A stretch of DNA of 18,673 nucleotides from a virus, in the IMG/VR virus record IMGVR_UViG_3300045988_025756, positions 1-18,673 of that record; one strand, written 5' to 3'. Every line of letters starts with the position of its first letter. The first letter of the stretch is position 1. The notes under the pieces are model-generated. The model was not told the DNA's origin, did no database searches, and worked only from the letters and a program-made list of their open reading frames with translations. Position numbers and translations under genes: made by a program. Positions 3,350-18,673 of this stretch are shown in pieces.

Positions 3350-3381
3350 GACAGACCGGTAGAGATATCTACCGGTCTGTC
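3350..3381 (-). terminator. Strong hairpin after the tail-lysin gene (candidate terminator without a U-tract)
   Basis: A 14-bp perfect stem (GACAGACCGGTAGA / TCTACCGGTCTGTC) with a 4-nt loop, 7 nt downstream of the stop at 3388. Confidence 0.5.
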
Positions 3382-3387
3382 GTTGTG

Positions 3388-4602
3388 TCAGAAGTTCGGT
3401 GGTGCGCTGGTGCCGTCCCATACATTCAGGAGCGAGTAGGCGGTGTTGTAGCGTGTCCCGTATGGTCCGAACGGGGATGTATTGAGGATATTATTATACA
3501 GTTGGGTGAGTGATGAAGAATGGGGCACGTTCAACGCGCCTGCCGGGCTTTGGTGATAAGCGCAAGTCCACAGTATCTGCATTTTCGCATCATCATACGT
3601 CTGCGGGTAGCTCTTGTAATCCTGTGCGAACTGATTACGCTGGCCTTGCCGTGATTCCGTGCGTCGCGCCCACGTCCGGAATGCCGCAACTTCGCTGCCG
3701 GTCATTGCTCTATCGAATGTGCCGCCCGATTCCATGAGCGCGGCGATACTCGGCGCGGCGGCGGCAAACGCCTCATATCCTACAGCGTCCACCGCCCTCA
3801 TCGCGTTCAAGACCTGCAAACGGCGTCCGAAACTCCACTGTGCGATGCCGATACCCTGATTATTTGATTCGACCGCATCCCAGCGCAATGATGACTCAAC
3901 GGTGCCGATTACATAGAGCGCGTATGAACTTTTCCCGTCGCCCACACTTGGCGTGCCCTGACCCCGGTCGGCGTCCGGCTGACCCGTGCCGCCGCGATAC
4001 ACCCAAGTCTGGGCGCTTGCCTTATAGAAAATGGCCTGCGATGATGTCGTGCCCGAGCCGCTATGATATACGAGATTGTCGCCCTGCAATTGAACCCACG
4101 CGGAGATATCGCCGTCCACACTCACGCCCGGGTTATTGCCGCCCGCCGGATTATCACCGGATTCCGGCGGTTCCGGCAATGCCGTTGGATGCAGATAGCC
4201 GAGTAGCTGCGAGCCTTTCATAAGCGGTAAGGTTCGGTGTACGGCGGGCGTCGGGTTTTGTGTCAGTACATCGATGTCGTCGCCTTGGATACCACCCCAC
4301 ACGATGGCTACGTGACTGCCGGGGTAGTTTTGACTGCCGAACTTCCAAAACACGACATCGCCCATGCCGGGCGTATAATTTGCGTCTTTTTTTTCAAAAA
4401 CGCGCCCCACGGCGGATGTGGTGGGGAACATGGTGTAATTGCCGTCCGCGTAGCCTGTCGGGGTGATGCAATCACCTAACGACAGATTGTAATTGTCCAT
4501 GCAGTATTTTGCCCATAGGTCCCAGCATTGGGCACCGTAAGCCCCGTCCATATCCCAATATTGGTTTTGGGTACGTTCCAACCATGCCTGTACGTCTACC
4601 AT
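3388..4602 (-). CDS. Tail-associated peptidoglycan hydrolase (N-terminal CHAP peptidase plus C-terminal phage tail lysozyme-like domain), functional analogue of phi29 gp13
   Basis: CHAP catalytic context: GAQCWDL (Cys) and PGSHVAIV (His). The C-terminal GIGIAQWSFGRR resembles the G-x-G-I-x-Q-W motif of the phage tail lysozyme family. The gene lies between the fibre genes and the ATPase. Confidence 0.82.
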   Translation of the reverse strand: MVDVQAWLERTQNQYWDMDGAYGAQCWDLWAKYCMDNYNLSLGDCITPTGYADGNYTMFPTTSAVGRVFEKKDANYTPGMGDVVFWKFGSQNYPGSHVAIVWGGIQGDDIDVLTQNPTPAVHRTLPLMKGSQLLGYLHPTALPEPPESGDNPAGGNNPGVSVDGDISAWVQLQGDNLVYHSGSGTTSSQAIFYKASAQTWVYRGGTGQPDADRGQGTPSVGDGKSSYALYVIGTVESSLRWDAVESNNQGIGIAQWSFGRRLQVLNAMRAVDAVGYEAFAAAAPSIAALMESGGTFDRAMTGSEVAAFRTWARRTESRQGQRNQFAQDYKSYPQTYDDAKMQILWTCAYHQSPAGALNVPHSSSLTQLYNNILNTSPFGPYGTRYNTAYSLLNVWDGTSAPPNF

Positions 4603-4611
4603 GATATTAGT

Positions 4612-4641
4612 ATACCCCGTCCGGCGTACCGGACGGGGTAT
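4612..4641. other. Perfect 13-bp-stem hairpin immediately upstream of the tail-lysin ATG
   Basis: ATACCCCGTCCGG-CGTA-CCGGACGGGGTAT. Its last base is the first base of the parS site. It overlaps a TATACT -10-like box at 4609-4614. Confidence 0.8.
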
Positions 4642-4656
4642 GTTTCACGTGGAACA
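4641..4656. promoter_or_regulatory. parS: parS site (ParB/Spo0J binding centromere), B. subtilis-type
   Basis: TGTTTCACGTGGAACA is the reverse complement of TGTTCCACGTGAAACA, the canonical B. subtilis parS 16-mer. The site is intergenic. Confidence 0.8.
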
Positions 4657-4680: not shown

Positions 4681-4715
4681 AATAATAATATACCCCACGA
4701 CGGTAAGTCGTGGGG
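4681..4715 (-). terminator. Rho-independent terminator after the fibre gene
   Basis: A 9-bp GC-rich stem (CCCCACGAC / GTCGTGGGG) with a 5-nt loop. On the minus strand it is followed by TATATTATTATTTAT. It lies ~20 nt downstream of the stop at 4736. Confidence 0.7.
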
Positions 4716-4735
4716 TGTGGGGTCGGTGGGTATTG

Positions 4736-8469: not shown

Positions 8470-8484
8470 GCCTCTAGTATAGCA

Positions 8485-10734
8485 CTAGAATGAGATGCCC
8501 GGCAATGGGTCGTTATCCGCCCAATCGGTCACGCCGATATCATCCGGGTTAGTCCATATAGTAGCCCCAGACTCGAACACGCCTTTAATGGTCTGCCGAT
8601 ACTGCTCGGGCAAATCACCTCGCACGTAACACTCTTGCATCTGCCAGTAGGTGAATTTTGTCATACATTCCAGCGATTGCGGCGGCGTGATGAAACGCTG
8701 GATAAAATACCCGTAACGCAACATGTACTCTCCGACGCTCCGCAGAGCTGAGGGTGCGCACGTCTTAAATCGAACCAACACCCCGACAATACCGTTCGCG
8801 AGGTTAAAACCGTCTCCGCCGATGGCACCGGATGTGGTCGGGGGTGTTAATTGCATCTGCTGTACCTGTGCATTGATACCCGCAATGGTGTTTTGATAGT
8901 CTCCGAACGCGGAACGTTGCGCGTAATCCGCGTTCATATCCGCCATATTTTGGGCCAACTGGTTTGAAAGCGCTGTAGTCTGAGAGCCGTATGTGTTGGC
9001 CTGACTTGTTGTGGCCGCGTTGGTACTCAGCGAGTTCGCCGTGGAAAGTTGGGCGGCGGTATTGTTGATACTGCGGTTTGCTTCAGTGTTGACACCATTC
9101 ATGACCGCACCGCCTAATGCCGATACCGCGCCCCCGACATTGCCCGAAGCGGCGTTACCCGCCACCCCGACCACGCCGTTAACCACGTTATTCAGCTGTG
9201 CGAGGTCAGCTCGCTGATTGTTGATATACGTCGTGTTGTCCAGACTGGTGTTAAGCGAGGTTGCTTGTATCGCGTTATTGGCGTTGCGGTTGCCGATAGC
9301 GAGTTTGTTGGCTTGGGTATTGTACTGGTTTTGCATGGCCGTGGCCGCGAGAGACTGACTGATGCCCATCTGCGCTTTTTGGTACGCCCAGTCAGCGGAC
9401 TGTTGGCTGTAGGAACGAGTGTAGGCACTGTTTGCCATTGCCAACTGTGCGCCATTGTTGACTATCACAAATTGAGGGAAATTGCTGATGCCAAACGCGG
9501 CGTCCAACATTTCCCCGCTATCAATGGGCAACCCATTGTTTTTATCAAGAGGAGCAATCTCGCTTGCACCCGCCTTATTGTACCCAACCGGGTAAAAGTT
9601 CAAGCGCGCGCCATTGGGCGCGTAATTATGCACCTCTCTAATAACCAGATTATCGCTTTGGATATTTTCGGGCTTATAGGTGATATTAGTGCCATTCAAG
9701 CAAGTGCATTCAACAGTAGAATAGGGGTAGCATTTGAGTTTTTTAAGGTTTTTATAACGTTTAGGGATATTAAAATTATCACGAAAATCATTAATGGTAA
9801 TAATGTCTTCATATCTGCTGGGCGCATTTGTGGCCGACTGGGGGAAACGGTAGATACGATTATTTAATTCCGAAGGGAGTGTTTTCCCAAACAGCTTATC
9901 TACGACATAGCCGGATTGCTTAAGAAAGTCATCATCTAAAGAGGGTATCATGTACATGTTTACAATACCCTGTGTTATCCATGAAAAAGTAGAGCCCACT
10001 CCCATAAACACTTGGATAGACTGGATGTCCTTAAAGTACAGTATTTCAGCACCGTTAGCCATGTTCTCAAACAGAGAGCCGCCCGCAGTAGTGAGAGACG
10101 GTTTTTCCTGACTGCCCGCGTCCGCTGACAAATCTACCGTGCTCACGACTATTACGCCGTAATTCAGATTTTTCCCGTCCATGCTGATAAGAGACTTGTA
10201 CTGTTGGATTACCGTCACCATTTCGCTACCGGTGTCCAGCCCTTCGGGTAGTGCGAGATAACTGCGACCATAATCGGTCATCTGGTTTTCGTTGGCAATG
10301 CCGATATGGCCCCGCACCACATAGCATGAACCAAACCTAAGTACATGCTGGAACGACTGCCAAACGTCCAACTGTACAGTGAGCTGAGTAGTGTACGCAT
10401 TGATGTAATCCACGTGGTTGATGAAATAATACCAATACCGTGGCGCTTCCAAGTCGGGGTAGTCGTTATACACCACGACATAGTTGTAGTTGGACGCCTC
10501 GTTAAATGGCAGTTCGACGCGCACGGGTTGGCCGAACATGTGCATGACTCCATGCACCCTGTCAATGCCGGGCCGTCGGTCGAACCATTCCTGTTGTTTC
10601 TGCGGTGATTCGAACCGGGCTAGGTCACGGTAACTACTATCCCACGGCACGTTACAGAGTTTCAGCGACGTGTTGGGCGTCCATTGAGCCCAGTTAAACG
10701 TCGCCTCGACGTTAGGGTTGATATCTCTCAGCAT
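8485..10734 (-). CDS. Tail knob / distal tube protein, phi29 gp9-like
   Basis: N-terminal similarity: CNVPWDSSYRDLARF...WF versus ADVPFSNDYKNTRWF...WF, and WYYFINHVDYINAYTTQLTVQLDVWQSF versus [31 protein letters not shown]. C-terminal similarity: RYGYFIQRF...IKGVFESGATIWTNPDDIG versus KYGYKINRV...IRTIFDNGITLWHTDNIG. A Gly/Ala-rich loop (VVGVAGNAASGNVGGAVSALGGAV) resembles the gp9 membrane-active loop. I moved the start to ATG 10734 (SD AAAGGGA), because the upstream 14 codons are only the parS palindrome. Confidence 0.88.
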   Translation of the reverse strand: MLRDINPNVEATFNWAQWTPNTSLKLCNVPWDSSYRDLARFESPQKQQEWFDRRPGIDRVHGVMHMFGQPVRVELPFNEASNYNYVVVYNDYPDLEAPRYWYYFINHVDYINAYTTQLTVQLDVWQSFQHVLRFGSCYVVRGHIGIANENQMTDYGRSYLALPEGLDTGSEMVTVIQQYKSLISMDGKNLNYGVIVVSTVDLSADAGSQEKPSLTTAGGSLFENMANGAEILYFKDIQSIQVFMGVGSTFSWITQGIVNMYMIPSLDDDFLKQSGYVVDKLFGKTLPSELNNRIYRFPQSATNAPSRYEDIITINDFRDNFNIPKRYKNLKKLKCYPYSTVECTCLNGTNITYKPENIQSDNLVIREVHNYAPNGARLNFYPVGYNKAGASEIAPLDKNNGLPIDSGEMLDAAFGISNFPQFVIVNNGAQLAMANSAYTRSYSQQSADWAYQKAQMGISQSLAATAMQNQYNTQANKLAIGNRNANNAIQATSLNTSLDNTTYINNQRADLAQLNNVVNGVVGVAGNAASGNVGGAVSALGGAVMNGVNTEANRSINNTAAQLSTANSLSTNAATTSQANTYGSQTTALSNQLAQNMADMNADYAQRSAFGDYQNTIAGINAQVQQMQLTPPTTSGAIGGDGFNLANGIVGVLVRFKTCAPSALRSVGEYMLRYGYFIQRFITPPQSLECMTKFTYWQMQECYVRGDLPEQYRQTIKGVFESGATIWTNPDDIGVTDWADNDPLPGISF

Positions 10735-10759
10735 ACTATCCCTTTCATAAAGAAGGGAG

Positions 10760-10775
10760 TGTTTCACGTGAAACA
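10760..10775. promoter_or_regulatory. parS: parS site, perfect consensus palindrome
   Basis: TGTTTCACGTGAAACA. Flanking GGGAG/CTCCC extend it to a 26-bp perfect palindrome (10755-10780). It lies in the capsid / tail-knob intergenic gap. Confidence 0.85.
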
Positions 10776-10797
10776 CTCCCTTTTATTATATCGCAGA

Positions 10798-10908
10798 TTA
10801 GGCGACTGTCAGTGCCTGACCGCTGACACCGAACAGCGCTGCCGTCAGCTTGGTGGAACCGGCGGCCACTCCAGTGACTAGGCCGGTATTGTCCACTAGG
10901 GGTTCGCG
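10798..10908 (-). pseudogene. Relic 3' fragment of a Big_2 (Ig-like) domain coding sequence
   Basis: The minus-strand frame reads REPLVDNTGLVTGVAAGSTKLTAALFGVSGQALTVA-stop. This parallels the capsid C-terminus VSESGVITGVKAGTSDISATLFGVSGKKQVTVS-stop. The frame opens just after a TGA and has no ATG or SD. Confidence 0.65.
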
Positions 10909-10941
10909 TCATCAATCATCATCCAACCTCCGGTATGACAA

Positions 10942-10974
10942 AGCCCGGAGCGCTCACGTGGCTTGCGCTCCGGG
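10942..10974 (-). terminator. Second hairpin downstream of the capsid gene (terminator candidate)
   Basis: An 11-bp stem (GCCCGGAGCGC / GCGCTCCGGGC) with an 11-nt loop. On the minus strand it is followed by TTTGTCAT. Confidence 0.6.
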
Positions 10975-10996
10975 CCTTGTCCTGCATCACACCGTG

Positions 10997-11024
10997 AGAG
11001 AGGGTAGCCAGTCAGCTACCCTCT
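10997..11024 (-). terminator. First hairpin downstream of the capsid gene (terminator candidate, no U-tract)
   Basis: An 11-bp stem (GAGAGGGTAGC / GCTACCCTCTC) with a 6-nt loop. It starts 10 nt after the capsid stop codon (11035-11037). Confidence 0.55.
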
Positions 11025-11034
11025 CATTGTATCA

Positions 11035-13313: not shown

Positions 13314-14774
13314 TCATAGCACAAAAACATGGCCGTCATCATTGAGATGACGGGACCCCGGCAGAAACTCATCATAGGGGATGGGGGCGGCACGATGCAC
13401 GCCACTCAAACGCATTACCGTGTCACCATTCGTTTCCACGCCGCAATATTTACGATTGCCGAGAATGCGGAGCCTCTCATAGGTATGGTCGTTTTTCCAC
13501 GCCCCAAGCTTCCGGTTATCCGTTTCCACACCTTCGGGCGCGTCCAACCCTTCCAATATCATGCCGTCGGTGTCGGCGTAGAGTACGCGGTCGGCGTTTG
13601 CGTTCATCGCGCGGGATAGTGTTTGACGCCCGTAGGCGTTGACATAGGCGGCGGTCGGAAGCCACGCCAGACTGTTGGCCGACTCGGGCTTGTCCACGGT
13701 AAAATCCACACCCCCGTCCGCCGATGGTTTCGGGTGCAGCATTGGCCGGTACAGCGAGGCCCCGAATTTTCCTACCAACGAGTTCAGTAACAGTTTCGCT
13801 ATTTGCCGACGCTCTCCGGTTGCGGTTTGTTTTACGCAAAACCATTTATCGACATAGTTGTAATAAAGTCCGTGCGATTTACGGAATTTCCAACCGCCGA
13901 CATGCTCCCACACATGGATGTCATAGTTTTCGGTCAGCGTTTCCCAATCCACATCCGTGACTGGCATAGTTACGACGCCTAACGTACTGTCCAAGCGTTC
14001 GCCCTCATACCCCCATACGGGTAGGATGTTGGTGAGCGTCGCTGTTTTCCCCTTTTTCAATCTTGCATCAAACGCAATGATATCGATATGCAGTGGATAA
14101 TCATTGTCATGTCGATATTCGCCGTCATACCATATGGGTGAGTCTACCGGCATGGGTGTATCGCGCATGATACTCGGGTAGAGGCTATTTACGTCCCAGC
14201 TCCGGCAATCCCGGTATTCGCCCGGCTTGCTGTGTACTATCGCCCCATAGTAGGCGGGGCGCATCCGATGATAATCGTTCTTGTCCAATGGTGGGAAATG
14301 GCGTTTGAATCCGGCGTAATCCCCGTCGATATAGTCGGTCATCGCCATGGATGCTATCGTAGTGCCCTTGAAATTCAGGGCGGCGCATTCCTGTGCGATG
14401 TTCCACGTGGTTTCCAAATCGTCCGCACCGCCGAATGTTTCACGTGAAACATTCAGCCCATCGTCACGCGTGACATTGCGCACGTCCATAAAATCCACGG
14501 TGATGCCGCCCATGCGCACGCGGAAACTGTAAAAATGGCCACGAATATTAAAAGTGCCCCATATGCCATTCTTGGCCGGATTGGATTGTAATGGGAGTCG
14601 TTTCAATAGTTCGGCGGCTATAGGCTTGATGTCCTGCCATCCGTGGGCGCACCATACGCGCGTATGATAATCGAGCATGGTGAGGCGGATGATGGCGGTT
14701 GCCGTCAATGGTTCCATACCGTCATCCGTCAATAGTGTTGCGCCGTCTGTTGCCGCCGTTCGACGCTCTCTCAT
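13314..14774 (-). CDS. Protein-primed family B DNA polymerase (phi29 gp2-like), compact 486 aa
   Basis: Motif A: WDVNSLYPSIM. YPLHIDIIAFDARLKKG matches phi29 YPLHIQHIRCEFELKEG (TPR1 region). Motif B: QIAKLLLNSLVGKFG. A TPR2-length insertion is present. Motif C: VLYADTDGM. A KxY-like motif (NRKY) and a YxG(G/A) motif (YYGA) are also present. Confidence 0.95.
   Translation of the reverse strand: MRERRTAATDGATLLTDDGMEPLTATAIIRLTMLDYHTRVWCAHGWQDIKPIAAELLKRLPLQSNPAKNGIWGTFNIRGHFYSFRVRMGGITVDFMDVRNVTRDDGLNVSRETFGGADDLETTWNIAQECAALNFKGTTIASMAMTDYIDGDYAGFKRHFPPLDKNDYHRMRPAYYGAIVHSKPGEYRDCRSWDVNSLYPSIMRDTPMPVDSPIWYDGEYRHDNDYPLHIDIIAFDARLKKGKTATLTNILPVWGYEGERLDSTLGVVTMPVTDVDWETLTENYDIHVWEHVGGWKFRKSHGLYYNYVDKWFCVKQTATGERRQIAKLLLNSLVGKFGASLYRPMLHPKPSADGGVDFTVDKPESANSLAWLPTAAYVNAYGRQTLSRAMNANADRVLYADTDGMILEGLDAPEGVETDNRKLGAWKNDHTYERLRILGNRKYCGVETNGDTVMRLSGVHRAAPIPYDEFLPGSRHLNDDGHVFVL
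14436..14451. promoter_or_regulatory. parS: parS site, perfect consensus, embedded in the DNA polymerase ORF
   Basis: TGTTTCACGTGAAACA. It extends to the 22-bp palindrome GAATGTTTCACGTGAAACATTC (14433-14454) and encodes NVSRETF of the polymerase. Confidence 0.8.
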
Positions 14775-14786
14775 GATTCCATCCTT

Positions 14787-15731
14787 TTAGTGTCGTGTCG
14801 CGCTGGTCATCCATTCATCAAGTCGCGTCTCCACGTCGCCCGCATCCGCTTTTACCTCCCATTTATGTGTCTTATCATTATACCATGCGGCTTCTCGTAC
14901 CACGATGCTGAAATTCGTGTTGTTTATCAGCCATCGTTTTTGACGGTTCGACAAGGAGGCGAATTTTTGGGCTATGCTAGAATCGAATGCCTCAAGCTGC
15001 TGTGAGACCCTATCAAAATCCGCAACCCCCTCGTTCTCGGAAATTTTTCTAGTACCTGCATGCAATGGCGCTCGGCCTATAAGCCCAGCGTATTCGAGTA
15101 TCTCTCGTTCAAGTCTCCGCCGGCTCCCTTCTCGTATCATCACACGCGCGTGGCTTATTCCACGCTCCGAACCGAACACGTTCGCACGGTTGCGTGTGAG
15201 TTCGTCTCGCGCCGAACCGCCGACCGTGTGAGTGCCCAACACGTCAAACGGCGACTCTCCCGCACGTTCCATCTCACGCATTTCAGCCACGGTGTAGCGG
15301 GCCATACTCAACGCCTCGAATTGTTGGGCGCGTTTGATTTTCTGCCGTGCTTCGATACGGCGGCGTTGTTGCTGTCGTAATGTTTTCCGACGTTTTGACG
15401 GGGCGGCGGCGATTTCCGCATCGGTAATCGGCGGGCGCGCCGCCAGCACCCTATCAAGTTTCGTGATATGCACGTCGGGAACGACTTGATACGGTTCATT
15501 GTCACGCGCCCTTAAGGCTTGCTGCTGCTCCCCGAATTCATGCCCAATGCGGCGTGCGACCTGTTCGAGCTGCTGGGCGCTGAGTTTGCCTAGGAATGTT
15601 TCGGTGATTTGTTTTGGGAGGCGTCCGTTACTGTAATCCCTTACCGCTCGTTCTTGACGTACCTGTGCAGACCTGATGGCGGCGTTACGTTTCAGATTGT
15701 TGGCGCGTCGGTTGTTTTTACGTTTAGCCAC
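14787..15731 (-). CDS. Candidate terminal protein (replication primer)
   Basis: The gene lies immediately upstream of the protein-primed polymerase, as phi29 gene 3 precedes gene 2. The protein is 314 aa with a strongly basic N-terminus (MAKRKNNRRANNLKRN). It uses a GTG start with a strong SD (AGAGGAGGGG). I recognise no sequence family, so the call rests on position only. Confidence 0.55.
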   Translation of the reverse strand: MAKRKNNRRANNLKRNAAIRSAQVRQERAVRDYSNGRLPKQITETFLGKLSAQQLEQVARRIGHEFGEQQQALRARDNEPYQVVPDVHITKLDRVLAARPPITDAEIAAAPSKRRKTLRQQQRRRIEARQKIKRAQQFEALSMARYTVAEMREMERAGESPFDVLGTHTVGGSARDELTRNRANVFGSERGISHARVMIREGSRRRLEREILEYAGLIGRAPLHAGTRKISENEGVADFDRVSQQLEAFDSSIAQKFASLSNRQKRWLINNTNFSIVVREAAWYNDKTHKWEVKADAGDVETRLDEWMTSATRH

Positions 15732-15756
15732 GGCCCCTCCTCTTATAAGTGTAAAA

Positions 15757-15795
15757 CACCCCCCCCGCCGTAAGGATGGAAACGACGGGGGGGTG
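15757..15795 (-). terminator. Intrinsic terminator after the SSB-like gene
   Basis: An imperfect GC stem of ~12 bp formed by a C8 run pairing with a G7 run. On the minus strand it is followed by TGTTTTACA. Confidence 0.6.
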
Positions 15796-15857
15796 AGTCT
15801 GGCGGCAACATCCCTATAGGGACATTACCACGCTATCATATGATGTGGACAAAGAGG

Positions 15858-17237: not shown

Positions 17238-17489
17238 CTAACGCCTTTCAATCAACAAAGTATTAGCCAACGCCATCGCGTCAACCAGCATATGAGCCAC
17301 CTGCGCATAATCGCACGCATCAAACGCCACAGCCGACCAAATCAAACTACGCCTGCCACCAGACTGAGACCGCCTCGATACCGCATACCGCAGTTCATAC
17401 ATCCGATTATGAGGACAATACACCAAACACACATCACCGTCCTTAAACCCGGACGGAAACACGGACACAACCTCATCACTCACCATCAT
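17238..17489 (-). CDS. Hypothetical small early protein
   Basis: The start MMVSDEVV is preceded by GGGGGGTG and overlaps the stop of the upstream gene. I judge the track N-terminal extension to be non-coding. Confidence 0.55.
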   Translation of the reverse strand: MMVSDEVVSVFPSGFKDGDVCLVYCPHNRMYELRYAVSRRSQSGGRRSLIWSAVAFDACDYAQVAHMLVDAMALANTLLIERR

Positions 17490-18454: not shown

Positions 18455-18673
18455 AAAACAACACGCAGAATCAACAACAGAAAAGAGGCAGGCAAAACAG
18501 AAGACAACAGAAACGATAACAGATGGCAGAACAAGAACGGCAATAAAAAACACAAGACAAAACGCAAGAGCAAGACACAGAACAGAACGGTTGTGGAAAA
18601 AGGATAGCTGCTGGGGGCCCTCCCCTATCTATACAAACATCGTAAAAATTATCTTTAAGCTCAATAACCAAAG
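18455..18673. repeat. Right inverted terminal repeat (perfect part)
   Basis: Exact reverse complement of 1-219. Confidence 0.97.

Follow-up and report, generated by a model that had tools for sequence, protein, structure and literature searches.

Dispersed host-type parS sites in a clade of phi29-like phages with Bifidobacterium as the probable host, and a separable RNA hairpin at the tail-lysin gene

The tail-associated lysin gene lies on the minus strand at 3388-4602 of the window, which is the whole 18,673-bp stretch of viral DNA that we analysed, and its product has a CHAP domain (Pfam, 8e-6), a weak tail-lysozyme match (Phage_lysozyme2, 5e-4) and matches to the PHROG endolysin and tail-associated hydrolase families. 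Read on the minus strand, the DNA leading into this gene holds a canonical intrinsic terminator after a 300-aa putative fibre gene (4716-4692, 10 pairs, T-rich tail ATATTATTAT), then TGGATAATAT, the 12 nt CGGGAATCCTCA, a parS site (4656-4641) and a hairpin (4641-4612), and base 4641 is common to the parS and the hairpin. The hairpin has a perfect 13-bp stem and a 4-nt loop (ATACCCCGTCCGG-TACG-CCGGACGGGGTAT, -25.5 kcal/mol), the -10-like hexamer TATACT lies at 4614-4609, 6 nt upstream of the lysin ATG (4602-4600), and the gene is without a Shine-Dalgarno sequence, which nearly all other genes of the genome possess. An earlier note on this DNA had described the exact parS, the perfect hairpin with its shared base, the hexamer, the 6-nt spacing, the ATG and the missing Shine-Dalgarno sequence, and each of these was read on the minus strand as described; the upstream terminator was likewise confirmed by a terminator scan, and the 12 nt CGGGAATCCTCA had been omitted from the description. 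The parS site, TGTTCCACGTGAAACA, which is intergenic and is referred to here as slot C, has 0 mismatches to the chromosomal-type parS consensus TGTTNCACGTGAAACA.

The window is one complete linear genome of a phi29-like podovirus, because its ends carry a 219-bp exact inverted terminal repeat (left copy 1-219, partner 18455-18673). Pfam and PHROG matches identified replication genes (SSB, putative terminal protein, and protein-primed family-B polymerase), structural genes (major head protein, tail knob, upper and lower collar, and putative fibre genes) and late genes (CHAP/lysozyme tail lysin, gp16-type packaging ATPase, holin, and amidase endolysin). Many of the small early phage proteins are without a recognisable family. 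The host genus is almost certainly Bifidobacterium, judging by homology: the endolysin has its closest cellular homologues, both full-length proteins, in Bifidobacterium bombi (71% identity) and B. aemilianum (69%), and in the GTDB species-representative scan 12 of the 18 loci were in Bifidobacterium (11 isolates and one MAG), all the best ones included. By tail protein, BD811P1-3 of B. dentium (49%) come nearest among the cultured phages, followed by BP1 of B. pseudocatenulatum (48%) and the honeybee B. asteroides phages (35-38%). Bifidobacterium is an actinobacterium and does not sporulate. For human-gut bifidobacteria only four cultured podophages are on record, and they are lytic (PMC12694917).

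The earlier note had not linked the exact parS at the lysin leader to two further full sites; the window carries three (4641-4656, 10760-10775, and 14436-14451). Slot B (10760-10775, TGTTTCACGTGAAACA) is intergenic and stands in the leader of a tail gene, and slot A (14436-14451, the same TGTTTCACGTGAAACA, which is the perfectly palindromic form of parS) lies in the protein-primed polymerase gene, where it encodes the codons N-V-S-R-E-T. A decayed fourth slot, A' (13828-13843, GGTTTTGCGTAAAACA), lies in the same gene, 608 bp from slot A and in a different reading frame, and has 4 mismatches in the window. Counted over both strands, parS matches with at most 3 mismatches numbered 7 in the window, against 0.10 expected from 200 shuffles.

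Slots were then compared among 80 related IMG/VR contigs, of which 46 are near-complete genomes of the close clade, and a slot was scored as occupied at one mismatch or less from the parS consensus. All 46 near-complete genomes have parS sites, from one to four each (mean 2.8, against about 2e-4 expected), and 45 of them have two or more. These sites are confined to four syntenic slots: A (39/46), A' (35/46), B (41/46) and C (15/46), which is the least conserved. The occupied A' slots mostly read GGTTTCACGTGAAACA, and several relatives have alleles with 2-4 mismatches. Slots A and A' reach only about the 91st percentile of conservation among sliding windows of the polymerase gene, and this figure together with the decay of slots points to a purifying selection that is weak, or that acts on the number of sites and not on their position. 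The comparison indicates that individual sites turn over and that the set is retained; we looked for compensation between slots, in the form of C being present when A, A' or B is lost, and found no such pattern in the 46 genomes. The trait is patchy in the sister clade (57% tail-protein identity), where three of the four near-complete genomes are without any site and the 'B' site is found within the tail gene, about 122 nt in. How many sites a genome has appears to matter more than where exactly they lie, and the 16-bp palindromes appear to settle where they are tolerated, namely in coding DNA (in two frames), inside the hairpin of slot B and beside the hairpin of slot C. Since slots lie in coding sequence, in the polymerase gene and in the tail gene of the sister clade, position relative to promoters is not the conserved trait. 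The earlier proposal that a ParB site sits in or next to a promoter or leader is right as to a genuine host-type site at the lysin leader, and its promoter position is not what the clade has kept.

At slot B a perfect palindrome of 26 bp (10755-10780, GGGAGTGTTTCACGTGAAACACTCCC, -20.9 kcal/mol) has the parS at its core and is followed by TTCTTT, and the slot stands 25 nt upstream of the tail-knob ATG (10734). A sigma-70-like match on the minus strand, CTGACA-16-TATAAT (10785-10812, 11/12 to consensus), ends 4 nt upstream of this palindrome and is a putative promoter; alternatively, its A-rich TATAATAAAA may form the upstream arm of a terminator that works in both directions. The layout of slot B is kept in relatives whose upstream sequence differs. 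At the same position BD811P3 and BP1 have an unrelated hairpin with a T-run, which suggests that the parS palindrome took over an existing hairpin slot.

At slot C the relatives present a different picture from that of a composite element. The parS there is intact in only 15 of the 46 genomes, and in the other relatives it is decayed (e.g. CGTTTCACATGAACCA), has lost its central 10 bp (giving CCCCATGAACATACCCC, in five loci) or is absent. Intact copies were seen in at least four different sequence contexts, with differing upstream genes and hairpin alleles. In the window, the parS and the second hairpin are flanked by two copies of the motif GGGGTATA, the first of which belongs to the canonical terminator at 4692-4716, and the lysin gene is evidently preceded by a recombination junction beside swappable receptor-binding genes. 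The neighbouring module, which consists of ATACCCC...GGGGTAT, TATACT, 6-7 nt and ATG, was found at 67 of 82 loci whatever the upstream gene (the remaining loci are mostly truncated contigs), and its hairpin is present with or without parS. Because the module is kept whether parS is intact, decayed, deleted or absent, parS and hairpin do not form one composite, and the 'fusion' described at this place would be no functional unit; we rejected the single composite element on this comparison of relatives, which indicates that the two elements are separable and that the hairpin is independent of parS.

The alleles of the hairpin show how it is constrained. Among 34 unique alleles the outer 7 bp (ATACCCC/GGGGTAT) are invariant, and the inner pairs 8-12 vary by compensatory substitution (G-C to A-T, C-G to G-C, and others), being paired in 162 of 167 cases, compared with 55-78 of about 170 in shifted registers; stem pairs were counted by script from the outside in, the MAFFT alignment having placed the inner stems out of register. 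In the same 34 alleles, 25 stem pairs are T·G or G·T, which pair solely as G·U in the sense-strand RNA and would be C·A mismatches on the complement strand or in a DNA cruciform. These wobbles and the compensatory changes argue that the hairpin is an RNA element and not a cruciform, and a cruciform or a symmetric double-stranded DNA operator was rejected as the main constraint because the 25 pairs are tolerated; the suggestion that cruciform extrusion acts at this site falls on the same evidence.

The RNA hairpin could mark the end of the fibre transcription unit as a U-poor terminator, a processing site or a 3' stabiliser. Directly 3' of the hairpin at 4612-4641 there is no proper U-tract (the tail is UAUACUAAUAUC) and the terminator scan made no call, which lowers the terminator reading, although U-poor intrinsic terminators occur in Actinobacteria and share with this hairpin a GC-rich stem directly after the upstream gene and a weak U-tract. 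Unlike a generic terminator, it has invariant outer 7 bp, which a terminator would not require. The canonical terminator at 4692-4716 is paralogous in sequence to the hairpin module (ACCCCACGAC..GTCGTGGGGTATA), and in other relatives an allele resembling that terminator stands directly before TATACT-ATG. A search of Rfam returned nothing relevant, the sole match that overlaps the hairpin being to the Pseudomonas sRNA P15, whose 24 bits fall below the gathering threshold of 70 and which we attribute to chance.

The start of the lysin gene has the sequence of a leaderless start, as it is without a Shine-Dalgarno sequence and has a TANNNT hexamer ending 6-8 nt before the start codon. TATACT-N6/N7-ATG is conserved among about 45 unique alleles of the relatives, the lysin gene of BP1 has TATAAT-N6-ATG, and the upper-collar gene of the window has TGcTATACT-N6-ATG. 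We infer that the lysin mRNA starts at its own ATG and that TATACT is the -10 box of a leaderless transcript, which would account for the missing Shine-Dalgarno sequence. The likeness to actinobacterial leaderless genes lies in the TANNNT 6-7 nt from the start codon and in the absence of a Shine-Dalgarno sequence; in B. pseudolongum 15% of transcription start sites were leaderless by Cappable-seq (PMC4782308). The ATPase gene, which directly follows the lysin gene, likewise has no Shine-Dalgarno sequence and has a hairpin (3350-3381) that is similar and covaries. A leaderless start was considered for this gene as well and was rejected because relatives do not keep its -10-like hexamer at a fitting distance. 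For annotation, the hairpin-TATACT-ATG junction is best treated as a separate conserved expression signal that is not to be merged with parS.

No ParA, ParB or HTH protein was found in any ORF of the window by Pfam and PHROGs at E up to 0.1, and no integrase, repressor or other DNA-binding family was detectable in any ORF. We therefore rejected a phage-encoded parABS cassette of the P1/N15/RedRock type, there being no ParA or ParB match, and it follows that the sites can work only by recruiting host ParB. Quite probably the phage parS sites do bind host ParB. Further, we predict with moderate confidence that they are dispersed loading sites for host ParB which position or segregate the phage genome, and that they are not a gate on the lysis genes. 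Host ParB would load at the phage parS sites and, as a CTP-dependent sliding clamp, would spread over the 18.7-kb linear DNA with covalent terminal protein at its ends, and the phage genome would thereby be coupled to the ParA/SMC origin-segregation machinery of the host. The likely benefit would be that the phage genome is positioned and inherited where lytic growth is delayed, as in a carrier state, and the scheme would be a non-sporulating counterpart of the use that phi29 makes of Spo0J. Weighing against it, we know of no demonstrated dormant state that such sites could serve in a strictly lytic phage of a non-sporulating host, and slots B and C adjoin promoter-like elements, where ParB might affect transcription. 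A two-clade tail-protein profile, with which we sought the carrier state in isolates, gave no match for a phage of the clade in GTDB genomes.

A bolder version of the segregation scheme can be formulated, which we consider speculative and on balance doubtful. The clade would have independently acquired 2-4 copies of the host centromere, would maintain and segregate its linear genome, capped by terminal protein, by means of ParB as a silent passenger in slow-growing cells, and would in addition have its tail and lysis operons damped by ParB at slots B and C, which would amount to a pseudolysogeny switch without a phage repressor, integrase or partition genes.

ParB could also be recruited during lytic growth, for compaction of the genome by SMC/condensin, for polar replication factories (ParB/DivIVA), or for the titration of ParB off the host origin. 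The evidence of the site sequences is the same for this use as for positioning and segregation, and genes for an integrase, a repressor or partition, which would point to dormancy, are absent from the genome. ParB-parS loads SMC in Firmicutes and Corynebacterium, and phi29 exploits the cytoskeletal and nucleoid organisation of its host. However, the close cultured relatives replicate lytically without parS, so that replication and packaging can do without the sites, and the one studied case, phi29, ties Spo0J to prespore segregation (PMC2731898). We therefore regard a purely lytic use as improbable.

The earlier note had gone further at the lysin leader and proposed that ParB at parS, or extrusion of a cruciform, could switch the block of lysin, packaging ATPase, holin and endolysin genes and so hold the late genes while the phage is partitioned. 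Several features would fit such a gate: slot C lies about 40-55 nt upstream of the putative leaderless start, slot B lies 4 nt downstream of the 11/12 sigma-70-like match in a repressor-like position, the host has no Spo0A for the repressor role seen in phi29 and the window shows no enrichment of 0A boxes, and silencing of promoters close by is known for members of the ParB family such as KorB and P1 ParB. The comparative data do not support it, and we consider it quite improbable: hairpin, TATACT and ATG are kept in nearly all relatives, whereas only 15 of 46 have an intact parS C, both A and A' fall within the polymerase gene and the sister-clade B within the tail gene (about 122 nt in), the G·U wobbles reveal a sense-strand RNA hairpin where a cruciform was invoked, and the same architecture of the junction is seen in cultured relatives that have no parS at all. 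Nothing points to control of the late genes by ParB at slots B and C. The broader idea of partition in a non-lytic state has a precedent in phi29 (PMC2731898) and is retained in the loading-site reading; the mechanism by which the phage was to be held there, a gate on the lysis genes, is unsupported.

The sites might instead be leftovers or neutral hitch-hikers without a present function, for example from an ancestor in a spore-former. Decay is consistent with this, as A' has 4 mismatches here and several alleles of relatives have 2-4, conservation is only modestly above the gene background, and most of the sister clade has lost its sites. Yet at least one site is present in every one of the 46 close-clade genomes and at least two in 45 of them, slot B is placed differently in the two clades and slot C occurs in at least four contexts, which indicates repeated gain or spread by recombination, and the more basal cultured picoviruses of Bifidobacterium, Arthrobacter, Curtobacterium and Actinomyces are without sites, which indicates that the trait arose in the Bifidobacterium-phage lineage. 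A mere residue is accordingly very unlikely. That the palindromes are primarily RNA hairpins or terminators, or operators for an unrecognised phage protein, with an incidental identity to parS, is least probable of all and barely credible, for although slot B is in a 26-bp palindrome with a T-run where relatives have an ordinary hairpin, and many small early proteins are without a recognisable family, the centromere is matched at 16 of 16 positions at 3-4 places, two of them in coding sequence without terminator context, the other hairpins of the genome are unrelated in sequence, and the same 16-mer is found in phi29, B103 and at least 20 unrelated picovirus contigs.

Strictly lytic-looking phages dominate infant and adult gut viromes and yet coexist stably with their hosts, and dispersed loading of host ParB, as the preferred reading, bears on how they may do so. 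The work on phi29 showed that a 'virulent' phage can hide by means of a host segregation protein, a case so far tied to sporulation. Hijacking of the host centromere in the style of phi29 is thus known; what is new here is the non-sporulating gut commensal host, the independent gain, and the presence of the sites in all 46 genomes of the close clade, and they are seen in many further gut picoviruses that are uncultured. This suggests that ParB hijacking is a broader strategy of persistence or genome organisation than spore entrapment. If the pseudolysogeny reading were true, the existence of at least 20 other parS-bearing picovirus contigs means that it could be a general strategy of gut picoviruses.

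Among cultured phages we found parS in only two of those checked. As a control, the phi29 genome (B. subtilis) contained the identical 16-mer four times and one degenerate copy, which fits the five published sites (PMC2731898), and B103 (B. subtilis) contained two. No site was present in GA-1 (Bacillus sp.), P68 (Staphylococcus), Cp-1 (Streptococcus), Av-1 (Actinomyces), Anjali (Arthrobacter), Ayka (Curtobacterium), or the Bifidobacterium phages BD811P2, BD811P3, BP1, BadAargau2 and BadAztec1. Since the cultured picoviruses of Bifidobacterium and of other actinobacteria are without parS, the sites of this clade were presumably gained independently; and since the cultured Bifidobacterium picoviruses checked and most of the sister-clade genomes lack them, the trait is dispensable for lytic growth. 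An exact-match parS scan of IMG/VR gave at least 120 stretches, and 21 of the matches listed were phi29-like; 20 of these 21 listed contigs lie outside the clade, and their GC content ranges from 32 to 49% with up to 6 sites per contig, so that host-type parS recurs in picoviruses.

The closest known system is that of phi29, for which there is evidence that host Spo0J helps to segregate the phage genome into the prespore and in which Spo0A boxes repress phage promoters (PMC2731898). Both phages are small protein-primed podoviruses with the phi29 gene order and the same 16-bp sequence, the phi29 sites being the exact reverse complement of slot C of the window; each genome has several copies, scattered and for the most part in late genes or at operon junctions, and lacks ParA and ParB of its own. 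Indeed, the phi29 site at 17243-17258 lies 3 nt from the terminator hairpin TD1 (17262-17301), which parallels the adjacency of parS and hairpin seen here. In being virulent and phi29-like, in carrying several parS sites of the host type and in lacking par genes, the phage has a defining feature of the phi29 strategy. The differences are that the host here is Bifidobacterium, which does not sporulate, that the sites were probably acquired independently, one of them having apparently taken over an existing hairpin slot, and that there is no enrichment of Spo0A boxes, which make up the other half of what phi29 does: strict boxes (TGTCGAA) numbered 4 in the window against 2.8 +/- 1.6 expected and loose ones 15 against 12.9 +/- 3.5, with none at the genome ends. 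Spore entrapment of the phi29 type was therefore rejected, as the inferred host is non-sporulating and 0A boxes are not enriched.

With the chromosomal ParABS centromeres the phage shares the identical palindromic consensus and several copies per replicon. Clusters of chromosomal parS sit near oriC in Bacillus, Streptomyces, Corynebacterium and Mycobacterium, whereas the replicon here is an 18.7-kb virulent phage whose sites are not beside parAB or oriC, and at about one per 5-6 kb they are far denser than on a chromosome arm. A machinery of the required type, with ParABS homologues and parS of this consensus, is reported for all 12 OMM12 genomes, one of which is a Bifidobacterium (PMC10197239). 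The parABS systems of phages resemble the present case in having centromere-like sites on the phage genome that would allow extrachromosomal segregation. P1, N15 and mycobacteriophages of the RedRock type, however, are temperate phages with ParA and ParB genes of their own and private centromere repeats beside these genes, whereas the phage described here has no par genes and borrows the centromere sequence of its host.

Between positions 4603 and 4720 of the window, the parS at slot C (4641-4656, in the lysin leader) and the second hairpin are flanked by two copies of GGGGTATA. Each copy is the end of one hairpin module, namely that of the lysin leader or the terminator that is its sequence paralogue. 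Some relatives, L012 and L014 among them, have one hairpin only, joined straight to TATACT and the ATG. This layout resembles a joint left by insertion or recombination beside the variable receptor-binding gene cassette. Moreover, the lysin leader of five relatives (L022, L054, L058, L063, and L067) carries CCCCATGAACATACCCC in place of the CCCCATGTTTCACGTGAAACATACCCC of the others, a clean 10-bp deletion by which the centre of the parS palindrome is lost.

We also found a perfect 14-bp hairpin, GACAGACCGGTAGA-TATC-TCTACCGGTCTGTC, at 3350-3381 (minus strand) upstream of the packaging-ATPase gene, and its stem covaries among the relatives (variants GACAAACCGG.. and GATAGGCCGG..). The start of the ATPase gene likewise has no Shine-Dalgarno sequence (SD); therefore, a hairpin followed by a short leader without SD is common to two consecutive late genes. 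Further, the start of the upper-collar gene on the minus strand (8476-8505) reads TTGCCG-18-TGcTATACT, followed by 6 nt and the ATG, and is a second candidate promoter, leaderless or with a short leader, with an extended -10.

The region between the major head gene and the parS at slot B, in the leader of the tail-knob gene, comprises 258 non-coding nt (10777-11034, minus strand) whose predicted RNA folding is very strong (MFE -119 kcal/mol; z = -6.05 relative to shuffled sequences) and includes two long hairpins, both perfect. The region may be the packaging RNA (pRNA) of the phage or another structured RNA; a search of the region against Rfam returned no match, and most of it is deleted in some relatives (L022, L027, and L032). 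The second hairpin, GGCCCGGAGCGC..GCGCTCCGGGCC (10944-10975, minus strand), holds in its loop CCACGTGA, the parS core, and in the relatives without slot B it lies immediately 5' of the tail-gene SD.

Among the matches listed, at least 20 distantly related phi29-like IMG/VR contigs from gut and other metagenomes, with a GC content of 32-49%, bear parS at 1-6 exact or near-exact sites each; they include L104, L120, L138 (6 sites in 12 kb), L156, L161, L185, L191, and L197. The parS-rich contigs L112 and L152, where 5 sites each are clustered in about 1 kb, resemble the centromere arrays of plasmids or prophages. A related phage whose endolysin is 85% identical, in the 34.9-kb contig CYGL01000165.1 of NCBI assembly GCA_001292545.1, had no parS within the 20.7 kb of the contig examined. 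It is joined, on the same contig, to an opposite-strand block of unrelated genes including one for a 1022-aa protein, and the contig may be an assembly chimera or may consist of two phage genomes linked together.

A 314-aa ORF (14787-15731, minus strand) between the SSB and polymerase genes matched nothing in Pfam or PHROG and, judged by its position, is probably the terminal protein. Just upstream lies a 126-nt intergenic gap (15732-15857, minus strand) containing a hairpin of C7 and G8 runs (CACCCCCCCGTCG...CGGCGGGGGGGGTG). Inside the polymerase gene, a parS half-site, TGTTCCACGTGGTTTC, is present at 14399-14414, 22 nt from the parS at slot A. At 486 aa, the polymerase ORF itself is shorter than the genes annotated for the polymerase in phi29, GA-1, and B103, each of which is about 1.7 kb long.
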